Part shown: positions 25,210-41,190 of the stretch, in pieces
Layout: every line of letters starts with the position of its first letter
Position numbering within the stretch: position 1 is the first letter of the stretch
DNA from: Escherichia coli
GTDB lineage: Bacteria; Pseudomonadota; Gammaproteobacteria; Enterobacterales; Enterobacteriaceae
NCBI RefSeq assembly: GCF_024298765.1
Contig: NZ_CP101210.1
Reading direction: 5' to 3' (one strand)
DNA: 64,000 nucleotides
Program-made: the position numbers and the translations under genes
The notes under the pieces: model-generated
Told to the model about the DNA's origin: nothing
Databases searched by the model: none
Seen by the model: the letters and a program-made list of their open reading frames with translations, nothing else

Positions 25210-27681
25210 TTAAGAATCAGCCTGACTCGGGATCAGTTTTTGCCAGATAACTGAAACGTATTTTGCCTGGTAACGGGCGTCATCAAGTGCATTATGGCGC
25301 TCACCTTCGAATGGAATAGCCGTTCTGGCATCGAAGTCTATGGCTTTCCCCAGCTCAACGATTGTGCGTACATCGCGATCGTTGTAGTAACGCCACGGGC
25401 AGGGGATCCCCTGCCGTTCGTATGAACGGCGCAAAATCGTGTTGTCGAAGTTGGCTCCATTTCCCCAAACCTGAACAAAAAATTCACTGGAGTTTTCGTC
25501 GATAAATTCCCGCAATTGTAACAGTGCATCATCTAACGGGATTTCATCGGTCATAATGGCAGATTGCGCTTCGCGTGATTGCTTAAGCCACCATTTAATG
25601 GTGTCCCGATCAATGACTCCGCCAGCAGTTTCCAGATCGATAGTCTTACTAAATTCCGGTCCCATATCTCCGGTTTGCGGATCGAAAAATATTGCACCTA
25701 TTGAGATGATCGGGGCATCAGGATTTTTTCCCATGGTTTCAAGGTCGATCATTAGATGGTCACACGTCCTGCTGGTGGATGTGATTTCGTGATGACCGTT
25801 CACCTTAATTGAGTGATCTGCCGTCTCGCCAGTTTCATTATCGCTATTGTGATGCTGATTGCCGCCAGTGTTCTCCTTGTGTGGATGTTCAGCGCCTTCC
25901 ATTTCCTCCGGATCATCTTCCTGAACTTCAACCTGATACTCTTCATCGAATGTTTCTTGGTATGTTGCGTCGCCCATCACCGCGCCACAATCAGGGCAGT
26001 TGCCGCCGCCGGTCTGACCGCAGGCGGTGCAGACTTTTTCCACTTCCTGTTGCGCCACTGGTTCAGGCTGTTTCGTTTCTGGCTCGTTTTGTAACGCATT
26101 TGTGCTGTTTTGTTCCGCTTTTTGGTAGTTCCGTTCCGATTCATGCTGGTTCTGGTTCACAGAATCGCGGGTCTGGATCCCCTTAACCCATTTCGGATCA
26201 TTCGGGTCACTAATCCCTTCAACAAATTCACCACGTGATGCAGCAAGCAACTTATCGGCGTCAGGCTGGCTGATATTGGCTGCCTGCATAATTTTGTTTA
26301 CTTCGTCAGCGGTAACTTTTATCGGCTCTGGTTGTTCTGAATCTTCAGCGGTATCTACATTTTGCGGTAAGCCCGTGTATGTGCCATTTTTTCGGGCAAA
26401 ATATTCTTCTTTTGTGATTTCAGTGGCGCCAGCAGCCAGTGCCTTATCCAGACCAGAAAGTTTGTTTGCGCGACCGTATTTTTCTCCGTCCTTATCTGCG
26501 AAGAGGAAATAGAACGGCCCCTCACGCTCTACAGATGGTTCAGCTTCCGGCGCGGTTTCATTTTTTGGGATATCAGATACCTCAGTTTCCACTGCATCAG
26601 TTTGTGTTTCTGATGACTGGAGAACATCAACAGTGCCCAGGTCTGTTTCTTCATTCTCAAACACGCCCTTTGTCGTCAGGTATTCGCAGATATATTTGTT
26701 CAGTGCTATGGGATCTTTGTGAATGTCGATCGGACGCTCACGGACAAGGCCAAAAATAGTCTGGCGGTCGTAGCGAAGGGCATCAGGCTGTTTGCGCATT
26801 GATGCCGAGATACGCTTCCAGTCTTCGCGGTCGTTGTCGATAACTTCTTTTTTTGCCCAGCGATGGATGCTGCCGTCAATGTTTCCGGCATCCACATCAC
26901 CAGGCCAGAGAGCGTAGGCCAGTTCGTCATCCAGTGTTTTCCATGTCTGCTTGTATTCGCGATGAATGGCAGCAATGACCGGGCTGATTTTTCCTGTTGA
27001 ATTTTCAGTGTACTGTTGATTGGCTCTGGCGCGGGCGAGATCAACAACAGACGTGTATTTTCCGGTTTCCTTGCGTTCACCTTCGCGACGTTTTTTCCAG
27101 ATGCGCATCTCTGCCTGAATTTCGGGCCATTTAGCACCAGGAATACATTTATGCTTAACCCACCCAATGGCGTGCAACTTAAGCTCCGGATACATGGCGT
27201 TAACTTCTGGCATTTTCATCAACGCTTCAACGATATGTCCGTCGAATGTTGCCATGTCTTCCTGCAACAATTCCTGTGCGCTAATAACCATATCAACGGT
27301 GATGTTTTCACATGTGTCGAACTTAACCATGACAGCGTTCTGTACTTCAGGGGCCAGCTTGTCAAAAGTGACGTTCATCGGATCGGATTCAGTCTCAACC
27401 GGGACAAAAGAAGCAGACTCCTCATCCCAGCGGTTTTCCTGCATATATTCAGCATCCCATGAATCGAGGGCAGGGCGGGGTATGCCAGGTTTATCCTCGC
27501 AGACAATAAATTTATAAGCGCAGTCCTGAGCAGCCGGATAATGTTCCAGGAACTGCCAGTGAAATTTTGCTCGAGCACGGCGTTCGTCGCCAGCTTCAAT
27601 GGCTGTGGCTACAGCCACAGCGCCTTCTTCCCTTGTTGCCAGTTCGTCAGGAATAGCGGCGCAAATAAAGACTTTACTCAT
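25210..27681 (-). CDS. Large prophage exonuclease-like protein (823 aa) with central zinc ribbon and C-terminal DnaQ-like 3'-5' exonuclease domain
   Basis: C-terminal motifs DLETMG, WGNGANFDNTIL and HNALDDARY fit the DEDDh exonuclease pattern; CTACGQTGGGNCPDCG zinc ribbon mid-protein; occupies the position of the decayed ydfE in K-12 Qin. Confidence 0.7.
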   Translation of the reverse strand: MSKVFICAAIPDELATREEGAVAVATAIEAGDERRARAKFHWQFLEHYPAAQDCAYKFIVCEDKPGIPRPALDSWDAEYMQENRWDEESASFVPVETESDPMNVTFDKLAPEVQNAVMVKFDTCENITVDMVISAQELLQEDMATFDGHIVEALMKMPEVNAMYPELKLHAIGWVKHKCIPGAKWPEIQAEMRIWKKRREGERKETGKYTSVVDLARARANQQYTENSTGKISPVIAAIHREYKQTWKTLDDELAYALWPGDVDAGNIDGSIHRWAKKEVIDNDREDWKRISASMRKQPDALRYDRQTIFGLVRERPIDIHKDPIALNKYICEYLTTKGVFENEETDLGTVDVLQSSETQTDAVETEVSDIPKNETAPEAEPSVEREGPFYFLFADKDGEKYGRANKLSGLDKALAAGATEITKEEYFARKNGTYTGLPQNVDTAEDSEQPEPIKVTADEVNKIMQAANISQPDADKLLAASRGEFVEGISDPNDPKWVKGIQTRDSVNQNQHESERNYQKAEQNSTNALQNEPETKQPEPVAQQEVEKVCTACGQTGGGNCPDCGAVMGDATYQETFDEEYQVEVQEDDPEEMEGAEHPHKENTGGNQHHNSDNETGETADHSIKVNGHHEITSTSRTCDHLMIDLETMGKNPDAPIISIGAIFFDPQTGDMGPEFSKTIDLETAGGVIDRDTIKWWLKQSREAQSAIMTDEIPLDDALLQLREFIDENSSEFFVQVWGNGANFDNTILRRSYERQGIPCPWRYYNDRDVRTIVELGKAIDFDARTAIPFEGERHNALDDARYQAKYVSVIWQKLIPSQADS

Positions 27682-27774: not shown

Positions 27775-27966
27775 TTAAAGACCTGCCGGGATTTCGATAT
27801 TATCCTGGTGAATAACTTTATCGACCGGGTAACAGTTACCGGGAATTTTCTGTTCGGTTGCTGCTGTCATACACTCCTGCATTGTCCTGTGAACACTGAC
27901 TGCAATATCAACTGGCTCTCCGGAAACAAGAAAAACTGTCAGAACAAGCGCAAATGCTGAATTCAT
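27775..27966 (-). CDS. ydfD: Small membrane/secreted protein (63 aa)
   Basis: MNSAFALVLTVFLVSGEPVD hydrophobic N-terminus; directly downstream of dicB as in Qin. Confidence 0.7.
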   Translation of the reverse strand: MNSAFALVLTVFLVSGEPVDIAVSVHRTMQECMTAATEQKIPGNCYPVDKVIHQDNIEIPAGL

Positions 27967-28151
27967 TGTGCACATCCTTTTGGCATCAGACGTAAACGAG
28001 CCAGCATTGAAACAATGCATATTTTATTTAATAGCTCCCGTTCTTGTTTTCTCTTGTTAATGGCATCTTCAGTAAATACAGGGTTACTGATAGTGACACC
28101 AATTTCAAAACAACCTTCAGACGTATTAACGTTTGGTAATAACGTTTTCAT
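27963..28151 (-). CDS. dicB: Cell-division inhibitor DicB (62 aa)
   Basis: MKTLLPNVNTSEGCFEIGVTISNPVFTEDAINKRKQERELLNKICIVSMLARLRLMPKGCAQ matches recalled DicB; lies downstream of dicF. Confidence 0.85.
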   Translation of the reverse strand: MKTLLPNVNTSEGCFEIGVTISNPVFTEDAINKRKQERELLNKICIVSMLARLRLMPKGCAQ

Positions 28152-28320
28152 TATCGCGTCCTCAACAATGAATTTTGTGATGCAGTGCCTGGTGCCTCCA
28201 GGTGACGTTAACCAGTTAACAATTAACGCCGGATACAGAGAATCCACCCATAACACTGTTTTTGGTTTTAACTGTTCCGCGTGCGCTTAGCCGCATTCAC
28301 CGCATCACAAAATTCACTTT

Positions 28321-28378
28321 AAAAACGGCGGCAGAGCAGTCACGGAGTAAAACTGATACCGCCAAACGTCACCAGAAA
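28321..28378 (-). ncRNA. dicF: DicF small RNA
   Basis: Reverse complement of 28327-28378 reads TTTCTGGTGACGTTTGGCGGTATCAGTTTTACTCCGTGACTGCTCTGCCGCC, the recalled DicF sequence, ending in a GGCGG/CCGCC hairpin and U-tract. Confidence 0.85.
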
Positions 28379-28653
28379 ATTGATAACAGAGGGCGTTGCA
28401 GCGGGGTTGTCACTTAAGCGTATGGTCAACCTGACAACTCGGTGTCCTCAACGGGGAAGGAATAACCCTGCCATACTTACCGCCGCGCCATTTCGCGGGT
28501 TGCCACAACCGGAAGCGCACGGTCGAATTAAATTTAACGACACCGTACAGTGAGACGAACTTCGCCGTGCGCTTTCGTGTTGTGTGCCTGCTTTTAACCA
28601 CGTCAGGCGAGGTGGTATCCTTCTTATTCCGAATAACCAAGAAGGAAATCTAT

Positions 28654-28854
28654 ATGACTAAAGAAGAATTTGTCTCTTATATTTTTGATAAAACGGTTGA
28701 AATGTATGCCGCTACTTACGGGTCCTGTAATCCTCTGAATAAACCAGAGGGGAAAGATGATTTCGACAAAATTTACCGCTTCTTGGAGGACCGCTATATC
28801 AAAAGGTTAGAGGACGCAGGGATCAAATCCCCAGTGAAGTCACCATTGTCCTGA
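28654..28854 (+). CDS. Hypothetical 66-aa protein on the strand opposite the dicA operon
   Basis: ATG preceded by AAGGAAA RBS; lies in the spacer between ydfB/C and dicF; its 3' end overlaps the convergent ydfB/C-like ORF. Confidence 0.3.
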   Translation: MTKEEFVSYIFDKTVEMYAATYGSCNPLNKPEGKDDFDKIYRFLEDRYIKRLEDAGIKSPVKSPLS

Positions 28855-29200
28855 GAACTTGCAGGACGTCATGATCGTAACTTCCATCCAAACCGCGACG
28901 GCAAATTGCTTCTCGTATTACCGGAAGCAGTTCGCTGGAAATCTCGGTGCATATTTCACCTGATAATACGCCTGGCTCAAGTGAGAATATTGGTGAACTT
29001 ACGGTCTTGGTCTCGACAGTTTCAGAGTCAGTGCCAACATTATAAAGCTCAACGAAAGCGGTCTTGATTTTCCGGGCCAGATCTTTTGCTGGCTCGCTTG
29101 CAATATCTTTCCCGATTTCTCGCAGCACAGAATGCAATGTATGAGCTGCTGTTTTCTGTACATCAGACGGTAAATCTTTAAATTCCATCGTCAGCCTCAT
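28823..29200 (-). CDS. YdfB/YdfC-like protein, single unsplit ORF (125 aa)
   Basis: Start overlaps the ydfA stop by one base; sequence (MEFKDLPSDVQKTAAHTLHSVLREIG...) spans what are two short genes in K-12. Confidence 0.6.
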   Translation of the reverse strand: MRLTMEFKDLPSDVQKTAAHTLHSVLREIGKDIASEPAKDLARKIKTAFVELYNVGTDSETVETKTVSSPIFSLEPGVLSGEICTEISSELLPVIREAICRRGLDGSYDHDVLQVLRTMVTSLGI

Positions 29201-29352
29201 CAGTCAGTGTTTCTGGCTAACCAGCAACGCGCGCCAGATTCGGTTTTAAACGTTTTGCTTTTGGTATATGTCATCGCGGTGAACGTACCGTCCTGGTTGG
29301 GGAACACGCCACATACCAGAGATTCGCTGTTGCCAAGATCGATAGTATCCAT
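29200..29352 (-). CDS. ydfA: Small protein YdfA-like (50 aa)
   Basis: MDTIDLGNSESLVCGVFPNQDGTFTAMTYTKSKTFKTESGARCWLARNTD; first gene downstream of dicA. Confidence 0.65.
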   Translation of the reverse strand: MDTIDLGNSESLVCGVFPNQDGTFTAMTYTKSKTFKTESGARCWLARNTD

Positions 29353-29466
29353 GCTGACCTCATTTCCCCTTAACGCCGGGGTCGCGGAACTGTTTGCTGA
29401 GAACACCGTGCGGTGTCTTGATGGAAAGTAATTTAGAATAACCTAACATGAGAGGCAAGTGTTTTT

Positions 29467-29484
29467 TGTTAGATTGATCTAACA
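29467..29484. promoter_or_regulatory. Operator-like palindrome TGTTAGA-n4-TCTAACA downstream of dicA
   Basis: Perfect inverted repeat TGTTAGATTGATCTAACA; same half-sites as the palindrome in the dicA-dicC intergenic region. Confidence 0.45.
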
Positions 29485-29520
29485 AAAAGAGTGGGCGCAA
29501 CTAATCACTTGAAAAGAATG

Positions 29521-29928
29521 TTATTTTATTGATTTATTTTTACGCGCTTTAAGCATTTCTTCGAAGAGTTTGTTGAAGTTTTCTACTCTTGCGCGCATTT
29601 CAGACAGCAAGGCTTCCTGCTCGGAAGATGGAAGAGCATCGAATAATTCGATCAATTCTTTGTGGTTGGGAGTTAGCTCTGTTTCCACATGAAGTTCTTG
29701 TGCAGGCACTGGTGCCTTGTCTTCGTCACCAAACATTAGCCATGTAGGTGAGCACTTCAGAGCATCCGCTAAAGCAAACAATCGTTTTCCGACTGGCTGG
29801 GTTTCGTCTCTTTCCCATTGTGAAATTGTGACGTGAGCAACTCCAGCGAGGCGCGCAGCTTCTCGTTGTGTTAAGCGTAATTCTTTTCGTCGCGCCAGAA
29901 CTCGCTGGCCTAGGGTTCTTGTATCCAT
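29521..29928 (-). CDS. dicA: Prophage repressor DicA (HTH_XRE, 135 aa)
   Basis: HTH RLAGVAHVTISQWER and C-terminal ...EMRARVENFNKLFEEMLKARK match recalled DicA; divergent from dicC. Confidence 0.9.
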   Translation of the reverse strand: MDTRTLGQRVLARRKELRLTQREAARLAGVAHVTISQWERDETQPVGKRLFALADALKCSPTWLMFGDEDKAPVPAQELHVETELTPNHKELIELFDALPSSEQEALLSEMRARVENFNKLFEEMLKARKNKSIK

Positions 29929-34211: not shown

Positions 34212-34422
34212 TTTCATATTGGCGAGGTAAAGGTAGTTAAGTAGAATGGCTGCGGGTGCTTGAGGCTATCTGCCTCGGGCATGAACACCAAAGGCAGATA
34301 GAGAAAAGCCCCAGTTAACATTACGCGTCCTGCAAGACGCTTAACATTAATCTGAGGCCAATTTCATGCTAGACACATGTAGGTTAGCCTCTTACGTGCC
34401 GGAAGGCAAGGAGAAGCAGGCT

Positions 34423-34578
34423 ATGAAGCAGCAAAAGGCGATGTTAATCGCCCTGATCGTCATCTGTTTAACCGTCATAGTGACGGCACTGGTAACGAGG
34501 AAAGACCTCTGCGAGGTACGAATCCGAACCGGCCAGACGGAGGTCGCTGTCTTCACAGCTTACGAACCTGAGGAGTAA
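34423..34578 (+). CDS. hokD: Hok-family type I toxin (51 aa) with overlapping mok-like frame starting at 34366
   Basis: MKQQKAMLIALIVICLTVIVTALVTRKDLCEVRIRTGQTEVAVFTAYEPEE matches recalled HokD; AAGGAGAAG RBS; upstream in-frame extension resembles mok. Confidence 0.85.
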   Translation: MKQQKAMLIALIVICLTVIVTALVTRKDLCEVRIRTGQTEVAVFTAYEPEE

Positions 34579-37573: not shown

Positions 37574-37883
37574 TTTAGGGGACAGAAAAACTCCTTAATA
37601 CTGATAACCTGGTGCACCATACACACGTTCCTGGAGAAAACTACTTTTTTGATAGGGTTGAAGGTGGCTGGATGTCTAAAATAAACATTGCTTCATATGT
37701 TCAACTATGAGTTAATGACTGCGTCGGTTTGAAGAACAGACGATATACGAAGTAGTTTACTAAAGCAGTTCTCATTTCAGGTGTTATTCACTTATTCCTT
37801 CTTTGAGTCTCTCCAATTAAGTACGAAGTCGTTTCTGTTATGCAAACCATTTATGCCGAAAGGCTCAAGTTAAGGAATGTAGA

Positions 37884-38099
37884 ATGTCAAATAAAATGAC
37901 TGGTTTAGTAAAATGGTTTAACGCTGATAAAGGTTTCGGCTTTATTTCTCCTGTTGATGGTAGTAAAGATGTGTTTGTGCATTTTTCTGCGATTCAGAAT
38001 GATAATTATCGAACCTTATTTGAAGGTCAAAAGGTTACCTTCTCTATAGAGAGTGGTGCTAAAGGTCCTGCAGCAGTAAATGTCATCATTACTGATTAA
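37884..38099 (+). CDS. cspB: Cold-shock protein CspB (71 aa)
   Basis: [71 protein letters not shown]; long AT-rich 5' leader typical of csp genes. Confidence 0.95.
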
Positions 38100-38382
38100 A
38101 ATTCATCGCTCGTCTGTATACGATAACGAAGAAGGCTGATGCCTGAGTAGAGATACGGACAGAGTAGTGAATATTGGATCTCTTTAATAAAAAGTAAGGA
38201 GGTCCAATACATGAAACAATGGCCAGCATATTTGGCAAAATCTTAATCAGGAAAAGTATGCTAACCATTGTGGTGAAGTGCAGGTTTGCTGCATGAATAG
38301 TTTTACAGCAGAAGCTAACTGCTGGCATGGCAAAACAAAGTGCGTAAGTGGATGACTCCCACAAAAAGCACCACAATCTCAA

Positions 38383-40408: not shown

Positions 40409-40771
40409 GGTAATATTAAATCGGAACATTTACATCGCGGAATGTAAAATTTAAATAAAAAGGACTCTTCCATGAGCCAAAATTCCTGAAATCTTAAGGG
40501 TAAGATAAAAGGTCTTAATCAGAATGACACGTTTTATTAATAAATAAAGCTATTCTTTCATTGCTGTGTTTTTCTTTACAAAAGTAATCCTTGCTATGGG
40601 TGGTTAATCATGCGTTAATGGTGTTCTGGTTTGTTACAAATTTATCTGAAGCAGTCATTTTTATAATTTTATTATTTGTACCTCTTGAGATTTCCTTGTT
40701 GGTTTTTCTCTCTGATATTTTTTTTTCGGACCATTCTGCCCAAGGGCTAATTTCTTCAAAAGGTAATAATT

Positions 40772-40984
40772 ATGTCTAACAAAATGACTGGTTTAGTGAA
40801 ATGGTTTAACCCTGAAAAAGGTTTTGGTTTCATCACGCCGAAAGATGGCAGCAAAGATGTGTTTGTCCATTTCTCAGCAATTCAGAGCAACGATTTCAAA
40901 ACATTAACTGAGAATCAGGAAGTTGAATTTGGTATTGAGAACGGACCTAAAGGTCCTGCCGCTGTTCATGTAGTGGCGCTTTGA
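40772..40984 (+). CDS. cspI: Cold-shock protein CspI (70 aa)
   Basis: [70 protein letters not shown]. Confidence 0.95.
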
Positions 40985-41190
40985 GGTAGACAATATTACA
41001 AACCATATTCACTTTAGATGCCCGTGTTGTCATGGTTCCCAGTATAGAACATCATCTTTTGATGTTTCTGACATGAATCCTTTCGGGGCAAAATGTATCT
41101 TTTGTAAATCAATGATGATTACATTTGATAATATTTCACAATACTTAAATGCCAGCCGTCTGTCGTTGGATTTAAAAAAGTGAAAATGAA

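Follow-up and report, generated by a model that had tools for sequence, protein, structure and literature searches.

A small gene facing the dicF precursor of a Qin-like prophage as one half of a convergent two-gene cassette

Does the small open reading frame that faces the dicF precursor transcript in some Escherichia coli prophages encode a protein, and does it belong with dicF at all? Few genes of cryptic prophages are established to influence host division, metabolism and phage resistance; dicF and dicB are two of them, and to our knowledge their regulation has been worked out in K-12 only. The DNA analyzed here (the window) is a stretch of 64,000 nucleotides from E. coli contig NZ_CP101210.1, in which a frame of 66 codons, hereafter ORF66, lies in the spacer upstream of dicF on the opposite strand. 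A preliminary description made from the sequence had considered two origins for it, an inserted cargo gene or a chance frame in the long dicF leader.

The dicF-dicB operon and the edge of K-12 homology

Between 25.2 and 29.9 kb, the minus strand of the window carries the early-left operon of a lambdoid prophage of the Qin/mEp460 type, and a cro/dicC-like gene and ydaT are found on the plus strand, divergent from it. The order along the operon is dicA-like gene, ydfA-like gene, a 121-aa gene, a gap of 445 bp, DicF, dicB, ydfD and an exonuclease gene:

29521-29928, minus strand, dicA-like HTH repressor of the operon (RefSeq annotation of the identical record)
29200-29352, minus strand, ydfA-like DUF1391 gene, first of the early-left (dicB) operon (Pfam PF07151, E=1.1e-26; RefSeq CDS)
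28823-29188, minus strand, gene for a 121-aa protein of phrog_33007, the partner of ORF66 discussed below
28378-28595, minus strand, dicF precursor leader common to the K-12 and O157 Qin-like prophages (megablast)
28326-28377, minus strand, DicF sRNA, mature form of 52-53 nt with its terminator hairpin (Rfam RF00039)
27963-28151, minus strand, dicB, 62-aa cell-division inhibitor (Pfam PF05358, E=1.9e-40, positions 1-62 of 62)
27775-27966, minus strand, ydfD
25210-27681, minus strand, full-length exonuclease gene, 823 aa

DicF scores 72.5 bits against RF00039 (gathering threshold 48) over model positions 1-52 of 52, and is the only match in a permissive Rfam scan of 28200-29500; the preliminary description had named the RNA correctly but placed it one base off, at 28327-28378. 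The 62-aa DicB that it reported, directly downstream of dicF, agrees with the full-length PF05358 match and with RefSeq, which labels it dicB on a 100% identical chromosome. The spacer was likewise given as about 445 bp, which is the distance between the DicF 5' end (28377) and position 28823, where the minus-strand gene upstream stops. That upstream gene had been called ydfB/C-like, and this assignment does not hold, as BLASTP with the 125-aa ORF as query against K-12 YdfB and YdfC returned no match at E<=10 and the gene belongs to phrog_33007.

The exonuclease gene (25210-27681, minus strand) is full length in the window, unlike its IS2-truncated counterpart in K-12 and the partial one in BL21, and the window prophage is therefore more intact than K-12 Qin. 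It matches phage mEp460_ev081, where the counterpart of the dicA-like repressor is labelled 'Phage repressor protein C2'.

Much of this layout is shared with the K-12 Qin dicBF operon (ydfA-ydfB-ydfC-dicF-dicB-ydfD): the dicA-like gene, ydfA, the leader hairpin, DicF, DicB and YdfD are common to both, at ~93% or better. The difference lies between ydfA and the leader, where K-12 has ydfB and ydfC and no opposite-strand gene, whereas the window has the unrelated 121-aa gene and ORF66. Aligning the spacer with K-12 and other prophages, a check put forward in the preliminary description, we found that DNA homology to K-12 (93.5% identity) is confined to window positions 28200-28595 and missing from about 28596 to 29200, and that ORF66 is conserved and under purifying selection, as detailed below. 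Past ~28595, the leader is followed by ydfC and ydfB in K-12, by another gene pair in O157:H7, and by ORF66 with the 121-aa gene in the window; the Qin prophage of E. coli B/BL21 agrees with the window, not with K-12. By megablast, the dicB-dicF-leader segment is present in 4717 of 5426 complete E. coli genomes. This comparison shows that the insert of the window occupies the K-12 ydfB-ydfC site, directly upstream (in the operon sense) of the dicF leader.

The shared leader folds into a long hairpin at about 28513-28574, with 190 nt between its base and the DicF 3' end. In K-12, a 190-nt DicF species is generated by RNase III, on which DicF maturation depends, and an internal promoter was not detected in the operon (PMC10448788). 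The hairpin base coincides with the 5' end expected for this product, and we infer the RNase III site to be placed there. The leaders of K-12 (locus L002, about 2900-2960) and O157 (locus L003) hold ~60 additional nt with a GC-rich hairpin, CCGGATGCGCACCCGTGTCCGG (alignment columns 400-458), absent from the window. At the far end of the leader, the junction sequence GCGCTTTCGTGTTGTGTGCCTGCTTTT (28568-28595) is common to ORF66-containing cassettes without dicF and, in more loosely matching variants, to K-12 and O157. This junction may link mosaic modules during recombination, or the operon transcript may carry a site there.

Coding capacity and spread of ORF66

ORF66 consists of 66 codons and a stop, and the ribosome-binding site noticed in the preliminary description is well placed:

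28654-28854, plus strand, ORF66, gene for a 66-aa protein (WP_000159335.1, phrog_34441)
28642-28646, plus strand, Shine-Dalgarno AAGGA, read from the sequence, 7 nt ahead of the ATG

Its product, first described as unrecognized, already has a RefSeq accession and a PHROG number, both without a function: the identical protein is annotated as WP_000159335.1 in strain 104 and in BL21, and the match to phrog_34441 extends over positions 1-66 of 66 (E=1.5e-50). A literature search by protein accession gave no match.

The length of such a frame is in itself no proof of a gene, because the same 445-bp gap also holds unconserved ORFs of 51, 57 and 76 codons. We therefore relied on conservation. A word-indexed search and an exhaustive HMMER profile search found homologs of 65-73 aa with 47-89% identity, spread over at least seven prophage lineages. 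They come from E. coli, Shigella and Cedecea and from metagenomic enterobacterial prophages (metagenome-assembled Logan contigs); the HMMER search, over 1.8 billion representatives, retrieved no more than about 10 members of the family and no relative with an annotation. Pairwise dN/dS values (Nei-Gojobori) range from 0.11 to 0.27, with differences concentrated at third positions (e.g. 12/14/28 by codon position). In all seven lineages the ORF66 frame is the sole stop-free one of six, and its ATG and length are retained together with a Shine-Dalgarno sequence (AAGGA or GGAGG). Homologs, selection, the single open frame and the retained start signals together argue that ORF66 is a genuine protein-coding prophage gene under selection. 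The idea that its conservation is a by-product of that of the overlapping gene was ruled out, the overlap covering only 32 of its 201 nt.

A chance frame in the untranslated dicF leader would fit the 51-76-codon ORFs that arose by chance in the same gap, and the fact that no domain was found in ORF66. Yet such a frame would hardly show dN/dS of 0.11-0.27, nor remain intact and the sole open one in seven lineages down to 47% identity, nor occur in prophages without dicF and outside the K-12-homologous leader, and we take this reading to be refuted by the comparison. Of the two origins first proposed, it is the inserted cargo gene that agrees with the data, with the refinement that the inserted unit is a cassette of which ORF66 is one part: the spacer ceases to be K-12-like past ~28595.

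The ORF66 segment is present in 397 of the 5426 complete E. coli genomes, nearly always with >=99% identity. Carriers include BL21 and BL21 Star(DE3), both E. coli B derivatives, and O111:H- 11128, and the gene is also found in phage mEp460_ev081. In prophages without dicF it occurs beside cI- or cro-type repressors. Since the K-12/O157 homology ends near 28595 and ORF66 is found without dicF, we consider it cargo that lies outside the K-12-type dicF leader. This is the distribution of an accessory gene, present in some related prophages only (397 versus 4717 of 5426 genomes) and bounded by mosaic junctions.

Disrupted copies were seen only in two loci (L034, 3001-3051, and L035, 1957-2007), where ORF66 is interrupted after codon 15 by an insert beginning GGTGATGCTGCCAACTTACTGATTTAGTG..., which we take to be an IS1 terminal inverted repeat.

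The convergent partner and pairs of the same architecture

ORF66 had been regarded as an orphan. On the contrary, it forms one half of a conserved convergent cassette, to which the gene upstream of the spacer contributes its C-terminal domain as the other half:

28826-28960, minus strand, C-terminal domain (~45 aa) of the partner, found with ORF66 in every lineage
28568-28960 (approximate), no strand assigned, mobile two-gene cassette comprising junction, promoter region, ORF66 and partner C-domain (extent of homology, K-12/O157 edge)

The 121-aa partner is composite. Its N-terminal ~55 aa form a domain that we call MEFKDLP, common to phrog_9419, phrog_1363, phrog_2151 and phrog_6937, and its C-terminal domain has the consensus ..E.LPVIREAI.RRGLDG.YDH.VLQVLRTMVTSLG. 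In the window, the 3' ends of partner and ORF66 overlap by 32 nt. We examined seven independent contexts in detail and 18 IMG/VR loci, and in every full-length case (~10 distinct sequences, 25 loci) ORF66 converges on the partner C-domain, with a coding overlap of 32-56 nt wherever the partner stop could be placed. What precedes the C-domain varies: it is fused to the MEFKDLP N-domain in the window and two other loci (L012, L013), attached to an unrelated N-terminus in two more (L006, L007), and stands essentially alone as a 63-aa protein in L008 and L036 and, in Cedecea (L004), as an ORF left uncalled. Between more divergent copies, the C-domain shows pN of 0.26 versus pS of 0.75. A profile search with it returned only the 63-aa stand-alone form.

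The flanks of ORF66 also vary between contexts, about half of which lack dicF, and the two-gene cassette is thus independent of dicF. In Cedecea it lies in the early-right operon, between cro and a cII-like gene. In all contexts the partner follows the direction of the early operon and ORF66 the opposite one. Homology between contexts extends from near 28568-28590 to near 28960, which delimits a cassette of ~370 bp; from these sequence comparisons, ORF66 and the last ~45 codons of the partner make up a swappable two-gene unit.

The constant association of the two genes could come simply from their overlap and tight linkage. ORF66 would then be a stand-alone moron expressed in the lysogen, with, for example, a superinfection-exclusion, anti-phage or host-modulating role, and its link to the partner would be physical only. 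The movement of ORF66 between early-left and early-right operons agrees with this reading, as does its placement on the opposite strand with a promoter-like motif of its own, reminiscent of lambda sieB. The conserved partner segment, however, reaches ~100 nt past the 32-nt overlap and is kept even where the N-terminal fusion is different or absent, and a second, unrelated cassette, that of phrog_4274, behaves alike. We regard the stand-alone moron as possible but rather doubtful.

This second cassette occupies the corresponding slot of O157:H7 (L003, 3017-3865), where a 70-aa plus-strand ORF of phrog_4274 adjoins a 212-aa gene of phrog_2151 that has only its first ~55 residues in common with the window partner. 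The phrog_4274 ORF is kept in E. albertii and Salmonella, with 77% identity and differences of 9/8/23 by codon position. In Salmonella (L039, 2476-3627) it adjoins a stand-alone ORF that matches the last 117 aa of the O157 partner with 79% identity, and the N-domain gene is separate, on the other side of the phrog_4274 ORF. A third pair is found in phage Evi (L011, 2510-3128), upstream of a dicF copy and kil: a 135-aa protein of phrog_1363, which carries the MEFKDLP N-domain, and a 77-aa one of phrog_10348, overlapping by 23 nt. The O157:H7 and Evi pairs thus share slot, geometry and MEFKDLP N-domain with the window pair, whereas neither their small ORFs nor the C-termini of their partners are related by sequence to those of the window pair. 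There are exceptions to the pattern: two Stx2 phages have the N-domain gene without an annotated convergent ORF.

The records of Evi (L011, 3423-3614) and mEp460_ev081 (L010, 4784-4939) also contain a 'hypothetical protein' CDS antisense to dicF itself (window 28262-28417, plus strand), checked by translation in Evi and assigned from its position in mEp460_ev081. The Evi CDS is almost certainly a mis-annotation.

ORF66 as an annotated hypothetical protein with a PHROG number was already known, as were dicF, dicB and the leader. What the present analysis adds is the purifying selection on ORF66, the replacement of ydfB-ydfC, the dicF-independent convergent cassette, and two unrelated cassettes that are alike.

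Expression signals, predicted structure and a possible role

Two features upstream of ORF66 bear on its expression:

28594-28621, plus strand, candidate ORF66 promoter: TTAACC (28594-28599), a 16-nt spacer and the TG-extended -10 TGgTATCCT (28613-28621)
28597-28646, no strand assigned, two short conserved inverted repeats: ACCAC/GTGGT (28597-28616) and TCCTTCTT/AAGAAGGA (28618-28646)

The motif TGnTA(T/C)(C/T)CT is retained in seven of seven lineages (by eye and by alignment), and the -10 candidate predicts a 5' end near 28626-28631 and an unstructured leader of ~25 nt. A consensus scanner reported no promoter upstream of the ORF66 start, the candidate lying below its threshold, and no terminator in 28200-29500, hence none after ORF66. 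A literature search for transcription-start-site maps of BL21 yielded no usable data. Judging by the conserved motif, transcription of ORF66 probably starts at a promoter of its own with this TG-extended -10. The result from K-12, where an internal promoter of the operon went undetected (PMC10448788), speaks against it, but K-12 lacks the cassette. In the second inverted repeat the Shine-Dalgarno sequence pairs with the -10 region, and this repeat would sequester it if transcription began further upstream than predicted. Covariation in both repeats is weak, and wobble pairs and covariation are mixed as to strand.

In the window, the early transcript has to pass through all of ORF66 in antisense before it arrives at dicF and dicB, so that transcription of ORF66 could lower leaky DicF and DicB. 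The locus might then act mainly as RNA, that is, as an antisense RNA or roadblock curbing leaky read-through into dicF, dicB and ydfD, or as an RNase III substrate, with the peptide secondary. ORF66 being wholly antisense to the dicF precursor transcript is in keeping with this, as are the 3' ends overlapping by 32-56 nt with no intrinsic terminator predicted after ORF66, and the RNase III dependence of DicF maturation in K-12 (PMC10448788). Purifying selection at the protein level is nonetheless clear, the cassette is retained in prophages without dicF or dicB, and the covariation in the hairpins is weak and not strand-specific, which makes a mainly RNA-level role quite unlikely.

The closest parallel for the position of ORF66 is sieB of phage lambda, which is also an opposite-strand gene in the early-left operon, near the immunity region, converging on an early gene; sieB (plus strand) adjoins N (minus strand) stop to stop and is expressed from the prophage. 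The resemblance ends with position, SieB being a membrane-associated protein of ~184 aa and ORF66 a soluble one of 66 aa that resembles SieB neither in sequence nor in profile searches. We accordingly rejected ORF66 as a SieB homolog (no Pfam, PHROG or NCBIfam SieB match, no membrane segment), and likewise as a relative of YdfB/C.

Convergent genes with overlapping 3' transcripts are also known from type I toxin-antitoxin systems, e.g. bsrG/SR4 of B. subtilis and ralR/RalA of the Rac prophage. As in toxin-antitoxin and effector-immunity pairs, the ORF66 cassette consists of two small, tightly linked, convergent genes of a prophage early region that overlap at their 3' ends and pass on as a unit, and a variable C-terminal domain is exchanged together with a small neighbor. 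It differs from toxin-antitoxin systems in having no toxin or antitoxin domain and no hydrophobic peptide, and in that ORF66 is protein-coding and not an RNA antitoxin. From these comparisons ORF66 appears to be a prophage accessory gene in a sieB-like slot, and not a member of the SieB, YdfB/C, toxin-antitoxin or defense families.

Searches for function were consistent with this. No significant match came from Pfam, NCBIfam or PADLOC for the two window proteins or for their O157 and Evi analogues; in particular, Pfam and NCBIfam found no toxin or antitoxin domain in ORF66 or its partner, and PADLOC no family at E<=0.1 for either of them or the O157 pair. Sequence searches of the PDB returned nothing meaningful. 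The AF2 model of ORF66 is a helical hairpin (pLDDT 82.8, helices 3-22 and 31-54), confident but generic, with a proline-rich tail predicted to be disordered. There is no membrane segment (maximum 19-residue hydropathy 0.31), a result which, like the lack of a PADLOC match, speaks against a stand-alone moron. Foldseek found no match with E<1 to this model in the PDB or BFVD; Rop, at rank 3 with a probability of 0.04, was rejected as noise. We also modelled ORF66 and partner as a single-chain fusion (30-residue linker, paired alignment of 10 rows), which gave pLDDT 48 and pTM 0.29. This showed no sign of a complex, a point in favor of a stand-alone moron; as the artificial fusion was of low confidence, however, it neither supports nor excludes one. 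In the same low-confidence model, the partner is predicted to form two helical hairpins, one at each terminus, joined by a disordered linker.

Our best guess is that ORF66 is a small protein expressed from the prophage and functionally tied to its convergent partner. ORF66 would be transcribed from its own promoter, against the early-left operon repressed by DicA, and would therefore be made in the repressed prophage, as lambda sieB is. Accessory loci are often expressed during lysogeny, according to a statement in PMC7067206. The helical hairpin of ORF66 may then act on or with the C-terminal helical hairpin of the partner; one example would be an early lytic function that ORF66 neutralizes or modulates. 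Because the 3' ends overlap and the operon transcript covers ORF66 fully in antisense, the two expression states would also be mutually antagonistic, and convergent transcription might dampen read-through into dicF, dicB and ydfD. For this explanation as a whole, in which ORF66 is a cassette half with its own promoter, made in the lysogen and acting on or with the partner C-domain, we estimate a probability of about 0.4.

A bolder version would make ORF66 and the partner C-domain a cognate pair, with an effector domain encoded in the early operon and a small opposite-strand protein that neutralizes it in the repressed prophage. Such a pair would belong to a larger class of swappable convergent cassettes, hitherto undescribed, in the early operons near the immunity region of enterobacterial lambdoid prophages. 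Convergent pairs unrelated to one another were seen in three cases (window, O157:H7, Evi), and an effector domain either fused to the MEFKDLP N-domain or standing alone recalls the architecture of polymorphic toxins and their immunity proteins. Even so, we hold this version to be unlikely.

Whatever the role of the pair, ~7% of complete E. coli genomes, including the B/BL21 lineage and an O111 EHEC, carry a different module upstream of dicF, with a conserved gene antisense to the precursor. Should ORF66 be transcribed, the rules that govern DicF and DicB production in K-12 need not apply to these strains, and if the pair is functional, an early-gene C-domain with a convergent small ORF would amount to a small prophage module of a new type.

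Other elements were noticed further along the plus strand of the window. A sok antitoxin RNA (Rfam, 117 bits) at 34254-34428 points to a module of the hok/sok type in this prophage region, and two matches to the cspA-type thermoregulator 5' UTR, at 37723-38146 (159 bits) and 40625-41011 (113 bits), indicate two cold-shock-protein genes.
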